This document shows positions 7,741-31,220 of a stretch of DNA of 35,210 bases, in pieces. This DNA is from Candidatus Kapaibacterium sp. Lineage in GTDB: Bacteria; Bacteroidota; Ignavibacteria; Palsa-1295. Positions within the stretch are counted from its first letter, which is position 1. Each line of letters opens with the position of its first letter. The notes under the pieces are model-generated. The model saw only the letters and a list, made by a program, of their open reading frames with translations. It ran no database searches and had not been told where the DNA came from. The stretch lies in contig JANWLI010000055.1 in assembly GCA_025450975.1 (NCBI GenBank), positions 1 through 35,210 of the forward strand, read 5' to 3'. A program made the translations under genes and the position numbers.

Positions 7741-7844
7741 AGAGCCAAATCTACTGAATAAAAAGTAACTTGATCTAAAACAAGACTGTTCCTTGGCGTA
7801 CATAGTTGGAGGTATAGGCCATGGGGATGGGTTTAGGGATTAGG

Positions 7845-8071
7845 GGCCTCTATTCACAGATGCGGCAAGCAGCAGTGTCGGTACCTGCAAATGTTGCAGA
7901 AGGTATTGGACGAGATTCGCCAAGAAATTTATCCGCCATCTTTCAATCGCGAAAGGATCTTTGGCAGAGCTGGAAACACATATTACAATCGCAGCGAAGC
8001 TGCATTACATAAACCAAGATCAATTCAAGGCTGGGCGGACTCCAACGATCACTTACAGAAAAGCTCTCTAA
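7845..8071 (+). pseudogene. Four-helix-bundle protein (23S rRNA IVS protein / Avd family), N-terminally truncated and frameshifted
   Basis: Frame of ORF 7821..8012 reads GLYSQMRQAAVSVPANVAEGIGRDSPR. After a frame change near 7915-7925 a second frame reads KFIRHLSIAKGSLAELETHITIAAKLHYINQDQF...stop (8069-8071). Joined, these align with residues ~36-100 of the intact paralog at 14338..14700 (YGLTSQLRRASVSIPSNIAEGHGRRGSKELSHHLSIAKGSLCELETQILLSVRLHFLSKED). The first ~35 codons are missing. Confidence 0.65.
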
Positions 8072-8094
8072 CTCAAACCACTGACCACTAGCCC

Positions 8095-8715
8095 TTACCC
8101 GAGAAACTTATTCCTGGCCTGCTGCAGCTCTTTGAGCAGATACTTGATATTCGGATCTTCCGACTTTTCGGCAAGCGGAAAATAATGCTTCGTCGTTTCC
8201 ATCACATACTTGATGGGGTTACGCTTGACGTTAAACTCCAGACATCGGAACGTGTCAAGGCGGTCGCAGAGCTTAAGCATCTTTGCATCGTCGGTGGCGC
8301 CGGTTAGGCGTTCGACATACTCTTTTTCGATGATCTCACGCATCTCGCCCGAGGCTTTAATGTCTTTCGTCAACATCGAGACGAGGTAGCTTGTGTAGGC
8401 GCCGAAGTTGTACTCAAGGATCTCGGGTGTCAGGACCTGCGAATCTTCGAGGACGTCGTGCAGCAATGCTGCGCAGATGATCGAGATATCGCTGATACCG
8501 AGTTCGTCGACGATGATCTTGGCGACGCGGCTTGGATGCCAGAAATACGGCGTACCATCCGGCCGTTTCTGGAATTCGTGGACGCTTTCGGCCATATCGT
8601 AGGCGTCAAGTGTCACGTTCACATCAAGGGCAGTAAGGTTGCGTTCACGGAGCATCCGCTCCATCGCAGCGCGTTCGAGATACGTCTCGTTATATTTAAA
8701 GACTGGTAATTCCAA
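8095..8715 (-). CDS. HD-domain (p)ppGpp hydrolase-like protein (RelA/SpoT-type small alarmone hydrolase)
   Basis: 206 aa. The blocks H..RVAKIIVDELG...ICAALLHDVLEDS and AKMLKLCDRLDTFRCL match the HD/ED and KLADRLHNMR-type motifs of the SpoT/Mesh1 hydrolase domain. No synthetase domain. The annotated start is TTG, and an ATG (Met18) is an alternative. Confidence 0.75.
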   Translation of the reverse strand: MELPVFKYNETYLERAAMERMLRERNLTALDVNVTLDAYDMAESVHEFQKRPDGTPYFWHPSRVAKIIVDELGISDISIICAALLHDVLEDSQVLTPEILEYNFGAYTSYLVSMLTKDIKASGEMREIIEKEYVERLTGATDDAKMLKLCDRLDTFRCLEFNVKRNPIKYVMETTKHYFPLAEKSEDPNIKYLLKELQQARNKFLG

Positions 8716-11110: not shown

Positions 11111-12505
11111 ATGTATTTACGGTTCGTCGGATTCATCTTACTCTTCATTTCTGCTATTCCTCTCTTTGCTCAGGAGGATAGCCTGACTGTCATTGGCACG
11201 AAGGACGTTATTACCGGCCTCGATACTCCCTGGGAGATCCTTTGGGGACCGGATAATCATATATGGATGACAGAGCGCTATGGGCGTATCAGCCGTGTCA
11301 ACCCGGAAACAGGAGAACTTACGCCGCTCATCACCATGCCGGAAGTCTATGAGACGGCCGAGGCCGGACTTATGGGAATGACACTGCATCCGCATTTTCC
11401 CGATCCGCCTTATCTCTACACTGCCTATACCGGCAAGGTTGACGATTCAACTTACGGTGTTTACATTGTTCGCTTCACTTATGCGCGGGATACGCTGGTC
11501 GACAAGCAGATCCTGATCGATCCACGACGAATTATCGGTGGCACGATTCATGACGGCTGCCGCCTTCTGATCGATAGCAACGACATGACGATGTACGTCA
11601 CGACCGGCGATGGCGAGGATTATTGGTATCCGCAGACCGATTCCATTTATAATGGCAAGGTGCTCCGCATGAACCTCGATGGCTCGGTGCCGGACGACAA
11701 TCCCATTCCCGGCAGTCATGTATGGTCTAAAGGCCATCGGAATGCGCAAGGTCTTGCCTACGGACCGCATCACTTGATGTATACTACGATGCACGGCACC
11801 TTTGAGGAAGATGAGATCAACATCATTGTCAAAGACGGAAATTACGGTTGGCCGAATATCAACGGTAAAGCTGATTTTGGTGATGAAGTTGCGTTCGCTA
11901 GTGACTCATCGGCCATTGACCCGATCTATACCTGGACTCCGACGATCGCACCGGGCGGATGTCTGTACTACGACCACGAGGAATTCCCTCAACTCCGCAA
12001 TTCCCTGCTGATCGCCATCCTCAAAGGCGATGGCGACGGTAACAGCTATATGATAGCTGCGCATCTCGACAGTGCGGGGACTGCCGTGACCGATACCGTG
12101 CGCTACTTCTACGGAGAATACGGCAGGTTTCGGGATGTCGCTATCGCTCCCGATGGAAGAGTCTTCATCTCGACAAGCAATAGAGATTCAAAGGGATTTC
12201 CAAGACAGGACGACGATCGTATTCTCATGCTCTACGCTGCGCCCCAGGTATCGGTCGCAGTTGATGAGCAGTCCACGGTTTCGATCTCACCAAATCCAAT
12301 GACTGGTGCTGCTTCGTTCGTGACGCTGCCGCACGAATTTGTCGGCGCTTCGTATGATATCGTCGATGCCTTGGGGCGTATCGTTCGGACCGGGACCCTG
12401 GAGTTCACCCAATCGCGTATCGAGCGTGGCACGCTTGCCGAAGGCGTTTATATCCTCCGCGTGCAGGGCGATGTTCCCTGCTCTACGCGGTTCGTAGTTA
12501 ACTGA
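11111..12505 (+). CDS. PQQ-dependent sugar (glucose/sorbosone) dehydrogenase family protein with a T9SS C-terminal sorting domain
   Basis: GLDTPWEILWGPDNHIWMTER.GRI..V, GLMGMTLHP.F, SKGHRNAQGLAYGP and EDEINIIVKDGNYGWP are typical of soluble GSDH beta-propellers. The tail ISPNPMTGAASFVTL...GVYILRVQG...RFVVN is T9SS-sorting-domain-like. Track ORF starts at 11006. The ATG at 11111 gives the leader MYLRFVGFILLFISAIPLFAQ. Its stop overlaps the convergent stop of the next gene by 8 nt. Confidence 0.8.
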   Translation: MYLRFVGFILLFISAIPLFAQEDSLTVIGTKDVITGLDTPWEILWGPDNHIWMTERYGRISRVNPETGELTPLITMPEVYETAEAGLMGMTLHPHFPDPPYLYTAYTGKVDDSTYGVYIVRFTYARDTLVDKQILIDPRRIIGGTIHDGCRLLIDSNDMTMYVTTGDGEDYWYPQTDSIYNGKVLRMNLDGSVPDDNPIPGSHVWSKGHRNAQGLAYGPHHLMYTTMHGTFEEDEINIIVKDGNYGWPNINGKADFGDEVAFASDSSAIDPIYTWTPTIAPGGCLYYDHEEFPQLRNSLLIAILKGDGDGNSYMIAAHLDSAGTAVTDTVRYFYGEYGRFRDVAIAPDGRVFISTSNRDSKGFPRQDDDRILMLYAAPQVSVAVDEQSTVSISPNPMTGAASFVTLPHEFVGASYDIVDALGRIVRTGTLEFTQSRIERGTLAEGVYILRVQGDVPCSTRFVVN

Positions 12506-14219
12506 GTTTCTTGAGGATCGCTTCGAACTCCGGGAGGTTGCGCAGTGGATCGAGGTCGGGATCGGTGCGAATCAACTTCAGGTTGCCAAAGCCCTTGTCG
12601 ACAGCAAGAGCGATCGCCTTAATTCCGTCGTCTAGTTTTTTATGCCGAATGAGCATACAGCCGACATTGTAAAGACTAAGTCCATCGCTGTGAGAAGAAG
12701 CTAAGAGTCTGTTGACGATATTCAGAGCTTTTTCTGTTTCGTGAAGGTCGAAGTAAAAGCTCGCAAGCCCTGCCAGGAGGAATTGATCGTCGGGCTGAAG
12801 TTTGCGTCTGTGCTCGAAGAGCGGCAAGGCGCGCTCGGCAACGTACGTTTGTCCTTGTGTGTCGCCGGTTTTCGAATACTGCACATACAGATTCCAGAAA
12901 CCGAAGATATTTTCCGGATTGACTTCCGTGCACTTCTGATACCACTCAATAGCTTGGATCGTCTTTCCTGCCTGGGAGTAAACAAACCCCATGCTCAAGT
13001 AACCCCGGATGATATTGGGTTCGAGCTCGATAATTTTTTGGGAGGCATCGATCGCTGCATCGAAATTGCCGCGGATCGTCTCGAGCGTTGCAAGGGCATG
13101 ATAGGCAACTGTGATCGTATCATTGATCGCAAGCGACCTATCGATCAGTGCTGCGACTTCGTCAAGCCACTCTTTGCGCTGTTCGTAAACACGATAGAGG
13201 ACGAGCAATGCCGACGCCTTGATCGCCATAGCAGCAGCAAAGCCGGGATCAATAGTCAGCGCTTCGTCGAGCAACTCAAGGGCATGCGTAATCGCTTGCT
13301 TTGTGCTCTGTTCGATGAAGCTTCCGGCACGCATATAAAATTCATAGGCTTCGGCGCTTTCGGTCAGACGCGCGGTTAGCTTCTCTTTATCTATCAGCGA
13401 GAGTGTGACTTTCAGCGCATCGATGGTCTTTCGTGCAACGGCTTCCTGGATGTCAAAGATATCATCCATGACGCCGCGATGCGCCTCATTCCAGATATAC
13501 TCGGTCGAGCGCGAGTCGTAGAGAGCGACAGTGATCTTGATCTGCTCGCCGTGCTTGCGAACTGCACCTTCGATGCAGTAGCGGACTTTCAGCGCTTGTG
13601 CAATTGCCTGCAGGCTTCCCTTGTAGCCTTTGTAGCCCATGGCAGTGCGGCGATCGGTGACGCGAAGCGACTGGATGCCGGAGAGTGCGTTGATCAGTTC
13701 GTCGGCAAGGCCGTCGGCGAACCACTCGTTGTCCTTGCCTGCTGAGAGATCTTCGAATGGGAGAACGGACAGCGAGACGCGTTCGTCTTTCGGTGCAGGT
13801 TGCTGAGCGGGTTGTGGCGCAACGGGCGTCGAGCCCGCGACGGCGCCGATTCGATCAAGGCCTCGAAGAATACCGTCGAAGTCGGCGTACTTGACTCGCT
13901 GCAGACCCGCCAGTTGGTAGCGAAGGTCGGCAGTGAGGTCGACGTGTTCGAGGTCGACGGGGATGATGGTCTTGCGCGACTCCGATGCGAGTGAGACTTC
14001 TTTGACAACATTATGCGATGCGACGGAGCTTTCGGAGAGCAGAAGGAGCACTACCTTGCACGTATCGATAGCGGTGACGATCTCGCGGGACCAGCTCGTG
14101 GCCGCTTCGATGCCTTGCGTATCGATCCAGATCGAACATCCGGATGCTCGCAAGCGCTCTGCTAAGGAGAGCGCTTGTTCTTTATCGCGGCGTGAATATG
14201 ATATGAAGACGTCTGACAC
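12498..14219 (-). CDS. TIR domain protein with a central alpha/beta module and a C-terminal TPR-like array (paralog of 2394..4109)
   Basis: 573 aa with a GTG start. (M)SDVFISYSRRDKEQALSLAERL...SIWID...VLLLLSESSVASHNVVKEVSLA is a TIR domain with E74 conserved. LSVLPFEDLSAGKDNEWFADGLADELINALS...RYCIEGAV...IKITVALYD is the central module, followed by TPR-like repeats. By manual count 49 of the first 80 residues are identical to the 2394..4109 protein. Confidence 0.8.
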   Translation of the reverse strand: MSDVFISYSRRDKEQALSLAERLRASGCSIWIDTQGIEAATSWSREIVTAIDTCKVVLLLLSESSVASHNVVKEVSLASESRKTIIPVDLEHVDLTADLRYQLAGLQRVKYADFDGILRGLDRIGAVAGSTPVAPQPAQQPAPKDERVSLSVLPFEDLSAGKDNEWFADGLADELINALSGIQSLRVTDRRTAMGYKGYKGSLQAIAQALKVRYCIEGAVRKHGEQIKITVALYDSRSTEYIWNEAHRGVMDDIFDIQEAVARKTIDALKVTLSLIDKEKLTARLTESAEAYEFYMRAGSFIEQSTKQAITHALELLDEALTIDPGFAAAMAIKASALLVLYRVYEQRKEWLDEVAALIDRSLAINDTITVAYHALATLETIRGNFDAAIDASQKIIELEPNIIRGYLSMGFVYSQAGKTIQAIEWYQKCTEVNPENIFGFWNLYVQYSKTGDTQGQTYVAERALPLFEHRRKLQPDDQFLLAGLASFYFDLHETEKALNIVNRLLASSHSDGLSLYNVGCMLIRHKKLDDGIKAIALAVDKGFGNLKLIRTDPDLDPLRNLPEFEAILKKLS

Positions 14220-14243
14220 ATAGCAAAGTTACGGCAGGCGGAC

Positions 14244-14296
14244 GGGCAGACGGGCAGACGGTCAGACGTTCAGAGGGGGCGGACGGTCAGGCGTTC
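14244..14296. repeat. Left arm of the GC-rich short-period array flanking the four-helix-bundle gene
   Basis: Octamer-like units gacgggca gacgggca gacggtca gacgttca, then gagggggc ggacggtcaggcgttc. Imperfectly complementary to 14724-14775. Confidence 0.8.
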
Positions 14297-14337
14297 GAAT
14301 ACGTATGTTTGTAATCATTCATTAATCATTATAACAC

Positions 14338-14700
14338 ATGTCGAACATTACTACCTACCGTGACCTACTTGTGTGGCAAGAGGCAATGAACCTCTGCGAA
14401 CTTGTATATGAATTGACACATCGGTTTCCCGATAGAGAATTATATGGTTTAACTTCTCAATTGCGTCGAGCATCGGTTTCCATCCCTTCCAATATTGCCG
14501 AAGGACACGGAAGACGAGGTTCAAAAGAGTTGTCGCATCATCTTTCGATTGCAAAAGGATCACTTTGCGAACTCGAGACACAAATACTCTTGTCCGTTCG
14601 ACTGCATTTTCTTTCAAAGGAAGATGGAGACAGATTCTGGACTAAAGTTCAGGACGTTGGAAGATTGCTGAATGCCTTTATCAGATCTTTGCTACCGTAA
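14338..14700 (+). CDS. Four-helix-bundle protein (23S rRNA intervening-sequence protein / Avd family)
   Basis: 120 aa. YRDLLVWQEAMNLCELVYELTHRFPDRELYGLTSQLRRASVSIPSNIAEGHGRRGSKELSHHLSIAKGSLCELETQILLS is the hallmark of this family (W.KA..L....Y.....FP..E.Y.L..Q.RRA..SI..NIAEG.....). Confidence 0.85.
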   Translation: MSNITTYRDLLVWQEAMNLCELVYELTHRFPDRELYGLTSQLRRASVSIPSNIAEGHGRRGSKELSHHLSIAKGSLCELETQILLSVRLHFLSKEDGDRFWTKVQDVGRLLNAFIRSLLP

Positions 14701-14723
14701 TCGCGCAGCATCCATTTAGACCT

Positions 14724-14775
14724 GAACGTCTGATCGCCTGCCCCCTGCACGTCTGTCCGTCCGACCGTCTGCCCC
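14724..14775. repeat. Right arm of the GC-rich short-period array flanking the four-helix-bundle gene
   Basis: gaacgtctgatcgcctgccccctgcacgtctgtccgtccgaccgtctgcccc. Its reverse complement aligns with the left arm. Exact complementary blocks include gggcagacggtc (14252-14263) with gaccgtctgccc (14763-14774), and agggggc (14274-14280) with gccccct (14740-14746). Confidence 0.8.
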
Positions 14776-15623
14776 TAGCGCCTTCCCCACTGCATAAACC
14801 TGCCGCGCTGGATGTCGACCGTAGCTGTATCGCTGAAGGTCCCTTGCGGGTTCGTGCGCCAGATGATGAGCGTTGCCGTACCGTCGCCATTGAAGGTGGC
14901 GTCGACGTCGCGGACGATCGAGAGGCCGTTCTGGCCGGTGGCGGTGTAGTGCGAGGTGGCCGTGCCTGTCATCCAGATCGGGCTGTCCTTGTTGTCGCGG
15001 TGGAGTTCGTTGTTGTTGAAGGTGACGGTCTGCTCGACATTCACTTCCTTGCCGCCGGCAGCTGTGGTCAGTGTATGAACACCGCTGCGCCAGTAGGTGC
15101 CGTTGAGTGTTGGCGGAGCGCCGCCTGCGCCGAGGTTGGTCAACTCCCATGCGGCATGTGAAGTGTCGTTGAGGTCGATGCGTGGGCTTGTTGCCATTAG
15201 TCGGCCATCGACAGTCATCGCGATCTTCGTCGTTATGCCTTTGGTGAAATCGGCCGTTGCGATGGGGCCGGTGAAGAAATTGTAGCGATAGACGAGGCTT
15301 GCCGAGTAGCTCGAGTTATTGAACGTGCGTTCGCGGCTTAGGGTGATGATGTGCGTCTTCGTCGCGTCGTCGTAGGCGGAGTCGCGGGCCTGGACTTCGT
15401 TCTTGCCGGAAGCGAAGTTGCCGATGCTGAAGCCTTCGGCGAGGTTCGACGCATCGCCCATGGAGGCGCCGGCGCCGCCGGTTTCCGTGCCGATGATCGA
15501 GCCGAAGCCATCGGCCGCAGCCTCGGAGCCGTAATCGCCTTCGGAACTGGTGGAATCGTCCTTGCAGCCGGTAAGCGAAAACACGGCAAGCGATGCAATA
15601 AGAAGGGGGTGATAGAATTTCAT
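14775..15623 (-). CDS. Hypothetical lipoprotein
   Basis: Track ORF runs to 15674 (TTG start). The ATG at 15623 gives MKFYHPLLIASLAVFSLTGC with an L-T-G-C lipobox. The rest is Thr/Gly/Ala-rich beta-type sequence. No family recognised. Confidence 0.55.
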   Translation of the reverse strand: MKFYHPLLIASLAVFSLTGCKDDSTSSEGDYGSEAAADGFGSIIGTETGGAGASMGDASNLAEGFSIGNFASGKNEVQARDSAYDDATKTHIITLSRERTFNNSSYSASLVYRYNFFTGPIATADFTKGITTKIAMTVDGRLMATSPRIDLNDTSHAAWELTNLGAGGAPPTLNGTYWRSGVHTLTTAAGGKEVNVEQTVTFNNNELHRDNKDSPIWMTGTATSHYTATGQNGLSIVRDVDATFNGDGTATLIIWRTNPQGTFSDTATVDIQRGRFMQWGRR

Positions 15624-15723
15624 CGTAATACCCAAAGTTAAGTTAATGTCTATTGGAGACAGATAACACGTCAAGGTTTAATGAAATCCCGCTCACAAGA
15701 CTTGAATCTTCGGCCGATCGAAC

Positions 15724-20229: not shown

Positions 20230-20238
<9 letters not shown>

Positions 20239-20430
20239 GATTTAAGATGTAAGATGTAAGAGTGGGATGCCGCGTACGGGAGTGCGCGGATTTTTTGTGA
20301 TGTAACAGTAAAGTGGGACGTTGTCGCTTCGCACTCATGCATCATAGTTTTGTGACGATGATTAGCAAATGTATCTGATAGCGCACATTCCGACGTTAAG
20401 TTAAATCTTACATCTTAAATCTTACATCTT
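20230..20430. repeat. Perfect 26-bp inverted repeat made of heptamer units, enclosing 149 bp
   Basis: The left arm aagatgtaagatttaagatgtaagat (20230-20255) includes the carB stop codon. The right arm atcttacatcttaaatcttacatctt (20405-20430) is its exact reverse complement. The unit is TAAGATK with a 7-nt period. Confidence 0.9.
20270..20297 (+). terminator. Probable carB terminator
   Basis: ccgcgtac / gtgcgcgg stem (8 bp including one G-U pair), loop ggga, then tttttt. Lies inside the inverted-repeat element. Confidence 0.6.
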
Positions 20431-21197: not shown

Positions 21198-22253
21198 ATG
21201 CCACTACTAAACGAATACGATTACGAGCTTCCCGACGAGCTTATTGCACGCTATCCTGCCGAGCGGCGGGAGGGGTCGCGGTTGCTGGTGGTTGGGCGGT
21301 CGGGCGTTCGGACGGACGGGCGTTCGGGGTTTGAGGATCGGAGGTTTACCGATCTTCCAGGGTATTTGCAGGCGGGTGATGTGCTGGTACTCAACGAGAC
21401 AAAGGTGATCCCTGCCCGGCTCGAAGGTACGAGAGAGTCTACCGGCGCAAAGGTCGAGATCTTTCTCCTGCATCGTCAGGCTGATCGGACCGATACGTGG
21501 CATGTGCTGGCTGCGCCGGCAAAGAAGGTAAAGACGGGCGAGACGATCCGGATCAATGATGAGCTTAGCTGTGAAGTCGTCGACGAGTTAGCCGAAGGCG
21601 AACGGATCGTTCGATTTGTATCGAGCGGCGATCTAGAAGCTGCGATCGAGCGCGCGGGCTCGATGCCAATACCTCCCTACCTCAAGCGCGAAAGCGATGC
21701 GACCGATCGCGAACGGTACCAGACGATCTTCGCGCGCGTACCTGGCGCCGTCGCTGCGCCAACGGCAAGTCTGCATTTTACCGACGAGCTCTTACGCGAG
21801 ATCGAAGCGAAGGGCATACGCATTGCACGTGTCGTACTGCATGTCGGTCTTGGGACGTTTCGTCCGGTTGAAGTTGAAGATGTGACGCAGCATAAGATGC
21901 ATGCGGAGTACTATGAAGTCTCGGAGGAAGCTTCGATAATCATTAACAATGCGCGAGCTGCAGACGGCAGGATCATCGCTGCGGGCACGACAGCTGCGCG
22001 GACACTGGAGACTGTTGCCGATGCTGACGGCACCGTACATCCGGGTAGTGGCGAGACCGCTATCTTTATCTATCCACCCTACAAGTTCAAGGCTGTTGAT
22101 GCGCTGGTGACGAACTTCCACCAGCCAAAGTCTACCTTACTGATGATGATCAGCGCGTTTGCGGGTGCGGAGAATATTCGTGAAGCCTATCAGCATGCGA
22201 TACGGGAGCGGTATCGGTTCTTAAGTTACGGCGATGCGATGCTGATTGTCTGA
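21198..22253 (+). CDS. queA: S-adenosylmethionine:tRNA ribosyltransferase-isomerase
   Basis: 351 aa. YDYELPDELIARYPAERREGSRLLVV, VLNETKVIPARL, MPIPPYLKRE..D.ERYQT.FA...GAVAAPTASLHFT, HVGLGTFRPV and FHQPKSTLLMMISAF are canonical QueA blocks. Confidence 0.92.
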   Translation: MPLLNEYDYELPDELIARYPAERREGSRLLVVGRSGVRTDGRSGFEDRRFTDLPGYLQAGDVLVLNETKVIPARLEGTRESTGAKVEIFLLHRQADRTDTWHVLAAPAKKVKTGETIRINDELSCEVVDELAEGERIVRFVSSGDLEAAIERAGSMPIPPYLKRESDATDRERYQTIFARVPGAVAAPTASLHFTDELLREIEAKGIRIARVVLHVGLGTFRPVEVEDVTQHKMHAEYYEVSEEASIIINNARAADGRIIAAGTTAARTLETVADADGTVHPGSGETAIFIYPPYKFKAVDALVTNFHQPKSTLLMMISAFAGAENIREAYQHAIRERYRFLSYGDAMLIV

Positions 22254-22370: not shown

Positions 22371-22405
22371 ATAATTCGTAATTCGTAAATCGTAATTCAT
22401 AATTT
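22371..22405. repeat. Tandem heptamer array (AATTCGT-like x4)
   Basis: ataattcgtaattcgtaaatcgtaattcataattt. cgt/cat recurs every 7 nt (22377, 22384, 22391, 22398). Confidence 0.8.
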
Positions 22406-31186: not shown

Positions 31187-31214
31187 TTTTTACTTTTAAC
31201 TTTTTACTTTTTAC
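31187..31214. repeat. Tandem heptamer array (TTTTWAC x4)
   Basis: tttttac ttttaac tttttac tttttac, ending 6 nt upstream of the rnhB GTG start. Confidence 0.8.
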
Positions 31215-31220
31215 TTTCCC

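Follow-up and report, generated by a model that had tools for sequence, protein, structure and literature searches.

The function and origin of the intervening sequences (IVSs) of 23S rRNA have been described as unclear (PMC4990558). In Coxiella burnetii, the IVS has a 28-bp terminal stem and tandem heptamers before the ATG of S23p, and RNase III cuts at the first repeat; the S23p protein is apparently not made and its ORF is decaying (PMC4990558). Short tandem units are also known from dispersed arrays, such as GGGNATC in Xanthomonas and Nostoc, the four tandem heptanucleotide sites of Geobacter and the cyanobacterial STRR, which hold about four units in about 30 nt, are located between aligned ORFs and are often convergent (PMC4692102, PMC2700814). 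Small genes framed by a dispersed repeat include RAYT among REP elements and ssnA among NTS repeats. The repeats of RAYT genes are reportedly matched to the lineage of the gene. We know of no established nucleic-acid-binding motif in the PF05635 family, the protein family of the locus described here, outside Avd of the diversity-generating retroelements (DGRs). On this family a literature search returned two items, the paper on the Coxiella IVS and a review of DGRs, and no paper linking such arrays to it outside rRNA.

The locus lies in a 35,210-nt stretch of Candidatus Kapaibacterium sp. DNA (contig JANWLI010000055.1, hereafter the window), and the source assembly is a 2.33-Mb metagenome-assembled genome (MAG), 67.5% complete and in 194 contigs. 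The features of the locus, by position in the window, are:

12498-14219, minus strand: TIR-TPR gene, the downstream host gene, with its GTG start at 14217-14219, 16 nt from the left arm
14236-14296, no strand: left arm, a bipartite array of 8-nt units, G-rich on the plus strand (direct-repeat family D1)
14304-14311, plus strand: TATGTTTG, a promoter-like box located within the arms, 26 nt ahead of the ATG, and matching TAnnTTTG, the Bacteroidota -7 consensus
14326-14334, plus strand: TCATTATAA, leader box, 3 nt before the ATG
14338-14700, plus strand: four-helix-bundle protein gene (PF05635 / TIGR02436), intact, 120 aa plus stop
14722-14775, no strand: right arm, C-rich on the plus strand, with the array type of the left arm in reverse complement (family D2)
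14775-15674, minus strand: lipoprotein-like gene, the upstream host gene, 299 aa, no Pfam match, with its stop (14775-14777) abutting the right arm

The rRNA IVS is the closest described relative of this locus, and here, too, duplexes formed on read-through may well be cut by RNase III. The resemblance to ORF-bearing IVSs (Coxiella burnetii, Leptospira, Xanthomonas-type S23p), pointed out in a first-pass annotation of the sequence, is real: both have the same protein family, a terminal inverted-repeat stem and tandem units before the ATG (7-nt GACAGAT in Coxiella, the 8-mer GGNCAGAC in the window), and both have been proposed to be selfish or mobile (PMC4990558). Unlike an IVS, the window cassette is located between protein-coding genes, antisense to both, and not in rRNA; as that annotation had held, no rRNA is involved, since no Rfam family reached its gathering score anywhere in the window, and the cassette is thus in neither helix 25 nor helix 45 of 23S rRNA. 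Unlike the Coxiella ORF, which is decaying and apparently untranslated, the window gene is intact, has a candidate promoter box of its own and, as judged by comparison with an 80%-identical relative (dN 0.15; pS 0.79, saturated), is under purifying selection.

The locus resembles the REP/REPIN-RAYT system in having one small gene flanked by an inverted short repeat that is dispersed in the genome and matched to the gene lineage. Unlike RAYT (TnpA-REP), however, the window protein is a four-helix bundle without an HUH/Y1 or other catalytic motif, its Pfam search having matched only PF05635 and bAvd and no Y1 HUH transposase, and unlike REP palindromes, the window repeats are tandem arrays of 7-9-nt units, whose relocation is putative. 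The Ssn (GIY-YIG) nucleases are likewise encoded by a small gene framed by a dispersed repeat (NTS/SRM) that the product binds, such binding being putative for the window protein; Ssn is a site-specific ssDNA nuclease (PMC11893778), whereas the window protein has no nuclease fold and the repeat architecture differs.

Avd, a pentameric nucleic-acid-associated ring, belongs to the same fold superfamily as the window protein. Identity of the locus with a DGR was ruled out by Avd model scores below the cut-offs (NF033474, 25.2 bits against 80; PF22296, 24.3 bits against 40), by the lack of a reverse transcriptase domain in the neighbours (TIR-TPR, lipoprotein, GSDH and other proteins) and by the lack of a template/variable repeat (TR/VR) pair, the arm arrays being the only repeats found at the cassette in the repeat search. 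The domain and repeat searches thereby confirm the first-pass statement that neither a reverse transcriptase nor such a repeat pair is present. Finally, the window arrays share unit number, length and location with the dispersed arrays named above, but unlike those, for which PMC4692102 and PMC2700814 make no link to PF05635, arrays of the window type frame and track PF05635 genes.

Anatomy of the cassette and its insertion site

The assignment of the gene to the IVS/Avd family in the first-pass annotation is borne out by a PF05635 match that spans the whole model (positions 1-106 of 106) at 126.6 bits, the cut-off being 33.8 (E 6e-37), and by a TIGR02436 score of 121.9 bits (cut-off 24), and its description as an intact plus-strand gene between two minus-strand genes, now recognised as the TIR-TPR and lipoprotein-like genes, was correct. 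A phmmer search with the window protein retrieved PDB 2gsc (X. campestris XCC0516, five chains; E 7.7e-28, residues 9-116), which is a pentameric toroid (Lin 2006, as cited in PMC4990558). Judged by this alignment, the window protein is a close relative of that toroid. An exact-sequence look-up found no identical copy of the protein on record. The G+C content of the ORF is 39-46%, against about 60% in the flanks.

The left arm consists, in order, of GGCGGACG GGCAGACG GGCAGACG GTCAGACG TTCAGA, a GGGGG spacer and CGGACG GTCAGGCG TTC, and holds five copies of an 8-nt unit of the GGGCAGAC/GGTCAGAC type; TRF reported arrays here at C55:14237-14268 and 14241-14290, and the unit of this cassette lineage in the window is the 8-mer given above. 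The right arm shares its last base with the stop codon of the neighbouring gene (1-base overlap). Inverted pairs I1-I12 connect the two arms, the best colinear one covering 34 nt at 85% (14244-14277 with 14741-14774), and others covering 23 nt at 83% (14274-14296 with 14724-14746) and 22 nt at 91%. The first-pass estimate that about four fifths of arm positions are complementary agrees with the 83-91% in these colinear pairs; its right-hand ends for the two arms (14296 and 14775) also hold, while the arms start slightly earlier than it had placed them, at 14236 and 14722.

The inverted arms of the window are real and not a product of chance. Local alignment of one flank against the other gave a score of 54, compared with a 99th percentile of 29 and a maximum of 38 among 600 controls, in each of which the upstream flank of one family gene was combined with the downstream flank of another. 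Folding of positions 14230-14790 gave -200.3 kcal/mol for the plus strand against -157.4 +/- 7.5 for shuffles (z -5.69), and -203.4 kcal/mol (z -5.95) for the minus strand; in the predicted RNA fold both arms pair as one long stem enclosing the ORF, and the hairpin that the first-pass annotation had proposed withstands this comparison, as 0 of 100 shuffles folded as well as the plus strand. No Rfam family, Gut-1 included, matched the arms (14100-14900) at E<=1. Copies of the unit inside the ORF were also considered and set aside as marginal (p 0.02-0.08), the strong matches being overlaps with the arm at the 3' end of the ORF.

The -7 box suggests that the four-helix-bundle gene is transcribed from a promoter located within the arms. 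Among armed cassettes of relatives, TAnnTTTG occurs between arm and ATG in 13 of 57 on the sense strand and in 0 of 57 on the antisense strand, whereas shuffles averaged 2.2 and never exceeded 8. An mRNA of the gene started from this box, which comes after the left arm and ahead of the ATG, would be without the 5' arm, and in the window only an antisense operon transcript would carry both arms on one RNA. The leader box is a 9-mer with 20 occurrences in the 2.33-Mb genome, four of them just upstream of the four intact PF05635 genes, and it is also present in the closest relatives of the cassette (L230 and L231). A TAACTTTG box is found on the minus strand at 14224-14231, ahead of the TIR-TPR gene; outward-facing promoter boxes as a general cassette trait were rejected, as their frequency of 2 in 141 flanks is at chance level.

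The two host genes are 555 nt apart in the window and the cassette occupies almost the whole gap. An empty counterpart of this site is present in a genome of the same family but another genus (G010), in which a lipoprotein homologue (47% identity) ends with TAA and the GTG of a TIR homologue (63% identity) follows 6 nt on, with no hairpin at the site. Conversely, the closest protein in a large protein database (P0002, 80% identity) is encoded by a cassette (L230) on a contig with unrelated flanks, and this cassette keeps the bipartite arm (array, G-run, array), the leader box and the 8-mer, here GGTCAGTC, 1 nt different. Window and L230 are 78% identical in the left arm, 85% in the leader and 65% in the right arm, all of which are far above shuffles; by this comparison the arm sequence itself, beyond its pairing, is conserved past synonymous saturation (pS 0.79).

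The 555 bp between the host genes are best read as an insertion, a single copy of a widespread cassette in which a four-helix-bundle gene is armed with arrays. The empty site in G010 and the same lineage in another context (L230) fit the first-pass suggestion of a cassette that is possibly mobile; a single filled/empty pair looks the same after gain as after precise loss, and the term 'mobile' rests only on the comparison of sites. Neither a target-site duplication nor a conserved target motif was found, the longest direct repeat at the outer junctions averaging 3.89 nt over 111 cassettes against 3.76 nt in mismatched controls, and no recombinase or transposase domain was found in the neighbouring genes. 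The flanking ORFs are clear for 108 cassettes. Of these, 64 have the orientation of both neighbours and 8, including the one in the window, are antisense to both; the neighbours diverge around 19 and converge around 17.

Recurrence of the arms and the genome-wide array population

The MAG contains six PF05635 loci, four of them intact and two decayed. Arms are present in all four intact paralogues, and no two of these share a unit (GGGGGTTC, GCGAATA/G, ACGAATT and GGNCAGAC). Their flank scores range from 43 to 55, all above the control maximum of 38. The reading of the window cassette in the first-pass annotation, for which paralogues with bare flanks would have been damaging, is therefore left standing, every intact copy having complementary flanks. 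One of the decayed copies is truncated at about residue 60 and lies between recA and recX, the other is a frameshifted remnant at 7845-8044 of the window, and in both, one flank still carries G-rich units and the opposite flank C-rich ones. Paralogue and array counts cover the assembled part of the MAG, which is 67.5% complete.

A census pooled 100 family loci from 40 relatives with the copies of the MAG and comprised 101 loci with both flanks long enough. The flank score exceeded the 99th percentile of the mismatched controls in 69 of the 101 loci and all 600 controls in 54. Of the 73 armed loci, 62 have a period of 7 nt, 10 have one of 8 nt and one has one of 6 nt; the median arm is 32 nt. 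A cross-phylum set comprised the 80 closest homologues from other phyla (45-59% identical), of which 77 had sufficient flanks. Of these 77, 45 had a flank score of at least 30, a cut-off for 'armed' that lies just under the 95th percentile of the controls (31; 99th percentile 41); the mismatched control is higher in this set because many of these homologues share unit types. The armed homologues are mostly of the AGGGGCT/AGGGACT type, and units of the AGGGGCT type accompany proteins of 50-57% identity in Acidobacteriota, Proteobacteria and Verrucomicrobiota. The upstream arm is the G-rich one in 70 of 73 cassettes, and this was considered as a sign of gene polarity and rejected, given that a foldback with a G-rich 5' arm and a C-rich 3' arm reads the same on both strands and that the G-rich arm is 5' in 25 of the 27 foldbacks of the MAG, gene-less ones too; the bias is thus a property of foldbacks and not of gene polarity.

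Looking across the whole MAG, TRF detected 183 arrays in which a unit of 7-9 nt is repeated at least 3 times, and their length peaks at 30-33 nt whatever the period, so that an array of constant length (about 32 nt) holds about 3.5-4.7 units. The idea of one unit per pentamer subunit was discarded on this account. About 125 of the 183 arrays are solo, and their orientation relative to co-directional host transcription is 23:23; the arm type of the window itself recurs as solo arrays at C9:16667-16699 and C191:13598-13619. The arrays also form 27 foldback pairs, 20 of which are gene-less with loops of 1-139 nt, the others having gene-sized loops, one of which (C39:4088-4561) contains a GxxExxY (TIGR04256) gene and not a four-helix-bundle gene. 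In some genomes many arrays of a family are present although no cognate cassette was detected, for example AGTCGAT and AGGCGGAT in the MAG and AGTAACG and AGTGCTK in two other genomes (G012 and G017). In a search for four units over 41 genomes, with the cassette's own arms subtracted, at least 9 further array matches were found in 9 of 11 cassette-bearing genome/unit pairs compared with 16 of 153 pairs without a cassette, these genomes being related and the cassette census incomplete.

Explanations of the arms

Protein identity and unit distance are correlated (Spearman -0.32), and 0 of 1000 permutations reach that value. The unit is shared to within one base in 45% of protein pairs at 60-80% identity, and in about 0-1% of those below 40%. 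In an exploratory test, a change of unit was accompanied by changes in alignment columns that cluster in two regions, residues 58-77 (helix 3 and the loop leading to it from helix 2) and 107-119. These covariation tests compare related genomes and are uncorrected for phylogeny, and co-inheritance alone can produce both covariation and co-occurrence.

The explanation that we favour, at what we regard as an even balance of probabilities, is an inserted cassette whose protein would recognise its own flanking arrays, much as RAYT genes relate to REP elements. It draws on the recurrence of arms with different units, the insertion, the constraint on arm sequence, the tracking of the protein by the unit and the co-occurrence of cassettes with further arrays, and also on the solo arrays in either orientation, the lack of a G:U excess in the arms (see below) and the kinship with a pentameric toroid. 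Against it we count the arrays without a detected cassette, the misfit between units per array and a pentamer, and the lack of a target-site duplication or recombinase. The homologous S23p of Coxiella, which is apparently not made, and the want of a known nucleic-acid-binding motif in the family outside Avd also weigh against it.

Under this explanation the cassette would consist of the PF05635 gene with its own putative promoter and leader and, on either side, one of two convergent arrays, in which a short unit specific to the cassette lineage is repeated about 4 to 7 times. The presumably ring-forming four-helix-bundle protein would be a sequence-specific binder of its own array type, so that the gene would sit between the sites of its product, as RAYT does between REP elements and ssnA among NTS repeats. 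Gene, leader and arms would be inherited together and presumably relocated as a unit. Where host read-through covers both arms, which in the window would give an antisense operon RNA, the transcript would fold into a long duplex, and RNase III would probably cut it, as has been shown for rRNA IVSs. Such cutting would be a consequence that makes the insertion tolerable, and not the reason for the arrays.

An alternative that we consider unlikely is an RNA element of the IVS type, in which the purpose of the arms is a long duplex that encloses the ORF. RNase III would cut this duplex, either to remove the cassette RNA from host transcripts or to mature the four-helix-bundle mRNA, and tandem units would only be a convenient way of building and keeping a stem. 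Such an element would account for the strong stem predicted on both strands, for the Coxiella 23S rRNA case, in which a 28-bp stem with tandem heptamers around a gene of the same family is cut by RNase III (PMC4990558), and for the array length of about 32 nt regardless of the unit, as a stem-length constraint predicts. An RNase III gene is present in the genome (C48:8611-8991), and where the host genes on both sides run in one direction (72 cassettes), 64 cassettes share that direction, so that read-through would carry both arms. The arms do not, however, bear the mark of selection on an RNA stem: their mismatches are 61 of the G:U type against 89 of the A:C type in the host's direction, and 72 against 78 in the gene's sense (59:50 in an earlier count), so that G:U wobble asymmetry was rejected as a sign of such selection in either direction. 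The promoter boxes inside the arms, the solo state of most genome arrays, which are unable to form such a stem, and the conservation of arm sequence beyond pairing and past synonymous saturation are further points against it, and a stem alone leaves the tracking of protein by unit unexplained. The claim of the first-pass annotation that the arms are made for an RNA stem was accordingly not borne out, in view of the promoter box inside the arms, the missing G:U excess and the share of arrays that are solo.

It is also improbable, in our estimation, that the gene is a passenger, i.e., that tandem-unit foldbacks are a class of host repeats, the arms being host DNA, into whose loops small genes such as those for four-helix-bundle and GxxExxY proteins insert or in which they survive best. 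The 20 gene-less foldbacks and many solo arrays of the MAG, the unrelated GxxExxY gene in the same kind of arms, the genomes with arrays but no cognate genes and the location of rRNA IVSs at helix tips would all be expected of such repeats. Arms, leader and gene are, however, found together in another context at 80% protein identity, the unit correlates with protein lineage across phyla, and the empty site in G010 is without any hairpin, all of which speaks for arms that belong to the cassette.

Very improbable is a third alternative, in which host regulatory or structural repeats (G-quadruplex or terminator-like) merely adjoin the gene and their inverted symmetry is incidental, for although comparable repeats between aligned ORFs, with about four heptamers each and often paired in convergent orientation, have been described as G4-forming in Xanthomonas and Nostoc (PMC4692102) and those of Geobacter as putative sites of a global regulator (PMC2700814), the arms are cassette-specific, with matched flanks scoring far above mismatched ones, and travel with the gene, and many units (AATTACG, AGTCGAT, AAGATGT) are incapable of forming G4, the lack of G runs in many units also being the ground on which G-quadruplexes were rejected as a general explanation.

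Meaning for the PF05635 family

Recognition of its own arrays by the cassette protein can be extended to a broader proposal, which we offer tentatively and at somewhat less than an even chance of being right. PF05635 rings would be sequence-specific readers of tandem 7-9-nt units, and the rings and the arrays that flank their genes would be the counterpart of REPIN/RAYT, pan-bacterial but without an enzyme. The ORF-bearing 23S rRNA IVSs, the dispersed heptamer and octamer arrays (Xanthomonas GGGNATC, the Geobacter H4 sites, cyanobacterial STRR) and the cassettes at operon junctions would then be one system, with specificity residing mainly in residues 58-77, which cover helix 3 and the loop between it and helix 2, and in the C-terminal helix.

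PF05635/TIGR02436 is a very large family of unknown function, with 4943 matches at E<=1e-20 among the candidates scored with the window query alone, and dispersed heptamer arrays have been noted for decades without explanation. The architecture of a gene with its cognate array provides one testable hypothesis, that the protein binds the array, for the family, the arrays and the IVSs alike. If it is true, the family would provide small natural proteins that differ in the short repeat they are specific for, and the cassettes and arrays would mark sites of insertion and rearrangement inside operons.

Paired and unpaired arrays in the window

The window harbors a second PF05635 copy besides the main four-helix-bundle (4HB) cassette, together with several arrays that enclose no gene.

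Further array-associated features of the window
7820-8097: decayed PF05635 copy, between two minus-strand genes
20230-20430: foldback without a gene, AAGATGT-unit arrays of 32 nt and 30 nt, reverse complements of each other
2340-2370, 21290-21328, 22372-22404, 31187-31217: solo (unpaired) arrays of about 30 nt, from the unit families AGTCGAT, GGTCGGGC, AATTACG and TTTTTAC

Pfam matches to the decayed copy are split over two frames (7845-7931 and 7919-8044), which indicates a frameshift. It is preceded by GGGNTTA-type units (GGGGATGGGTTTAGGGATTAGGGG) and followed by C-rich units (CCACTGACCACTAGCCCTTACCC), and these arms no longer give a positive result in inverted-repeat scoring (score 15). The foldback scores 55, with a loop of 139 nt between its arrays. 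Three-unit matches to two of the solo families recur in the genome, 34 times for AATTACG and 22 times for AGTCGAT.

Other contents of the arrays and their expansion

Elsewhere in the same metagenome-assembled genome (MAG), a GxxExxY gene (TIGR04256, PD-(D/E)xK-like; contig C39:4088-4561) lies between inverted arrays whose unit (TGGAATTTT) is 9 nt long, packaged identically to the four-helix-bundle genes. Array pairs at C114:12232-12626 and C142:9424-10483 enclose loops in which no convincing ORF was found and which are rich in GGTGTAAAT(T) copies; genome-wide, GTGTAAAT occurs 123 times and GGTGTAAATT 39 times. In another genome (G020), two perfect AGTAACG arrays (C25:27966-28091 and C26:12090-12215) are very long: with about 18 units each, they far exceed the usual length of about 32 nt. 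Expansion of the arrays is evidently possible.

Possible rearrangement, and occupancy, among relatives

The two closest metagenomic relatives, L230 (1436-2700) and L231 (3-1349), have in common an 800-nt flank beside the cassette with 80% identity. Relative to this flank the orientation of the cassette is inverted, and the opposite flank is dissimilar, an arrangement that suggests rearrangement at the arrays. At the recA-recX junction the MAG has a truncated 4HB cassette (C63:4339-4600). Four genomes of another genus (L201, L202, L209 and L212) have a solo array of AATGTAA type there that is conserved among them, and most other relatives have a short, empty junction.

Possible signals adjacent to coding regions

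Two short motifs accompany the main cassette.

14224-14231, minus strand: TAACTTTG, matching the -7 promoter consensus
14326-14334: TCATTATAA, upstream of the intact PF05635 gene

The first lies 4 nt upstream of the GTG start of the TIR-TPR gene, within the 16 nt that separate this codon from the left arm, and the 6-nt empty junction of the relative G010 contains no box of this kind. Outward-facing boxes, counted in 2 of 141 flanks, are no general feature of cassettes.

The MAG contains just 20 copies of the 9-mer TCATTATAA, and four of them (that in the window and those at C191:17895, C84:2289 and C86:20175) stand just upstream of the start codons of the four intact PF05635 genes. The encoded proteins are very divergent, yet the 9-mer precedes all four genes. 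Beyond this genome it was found in L230 and L231 and was absent from other genera. It may represent a common regulatory or leader signal.
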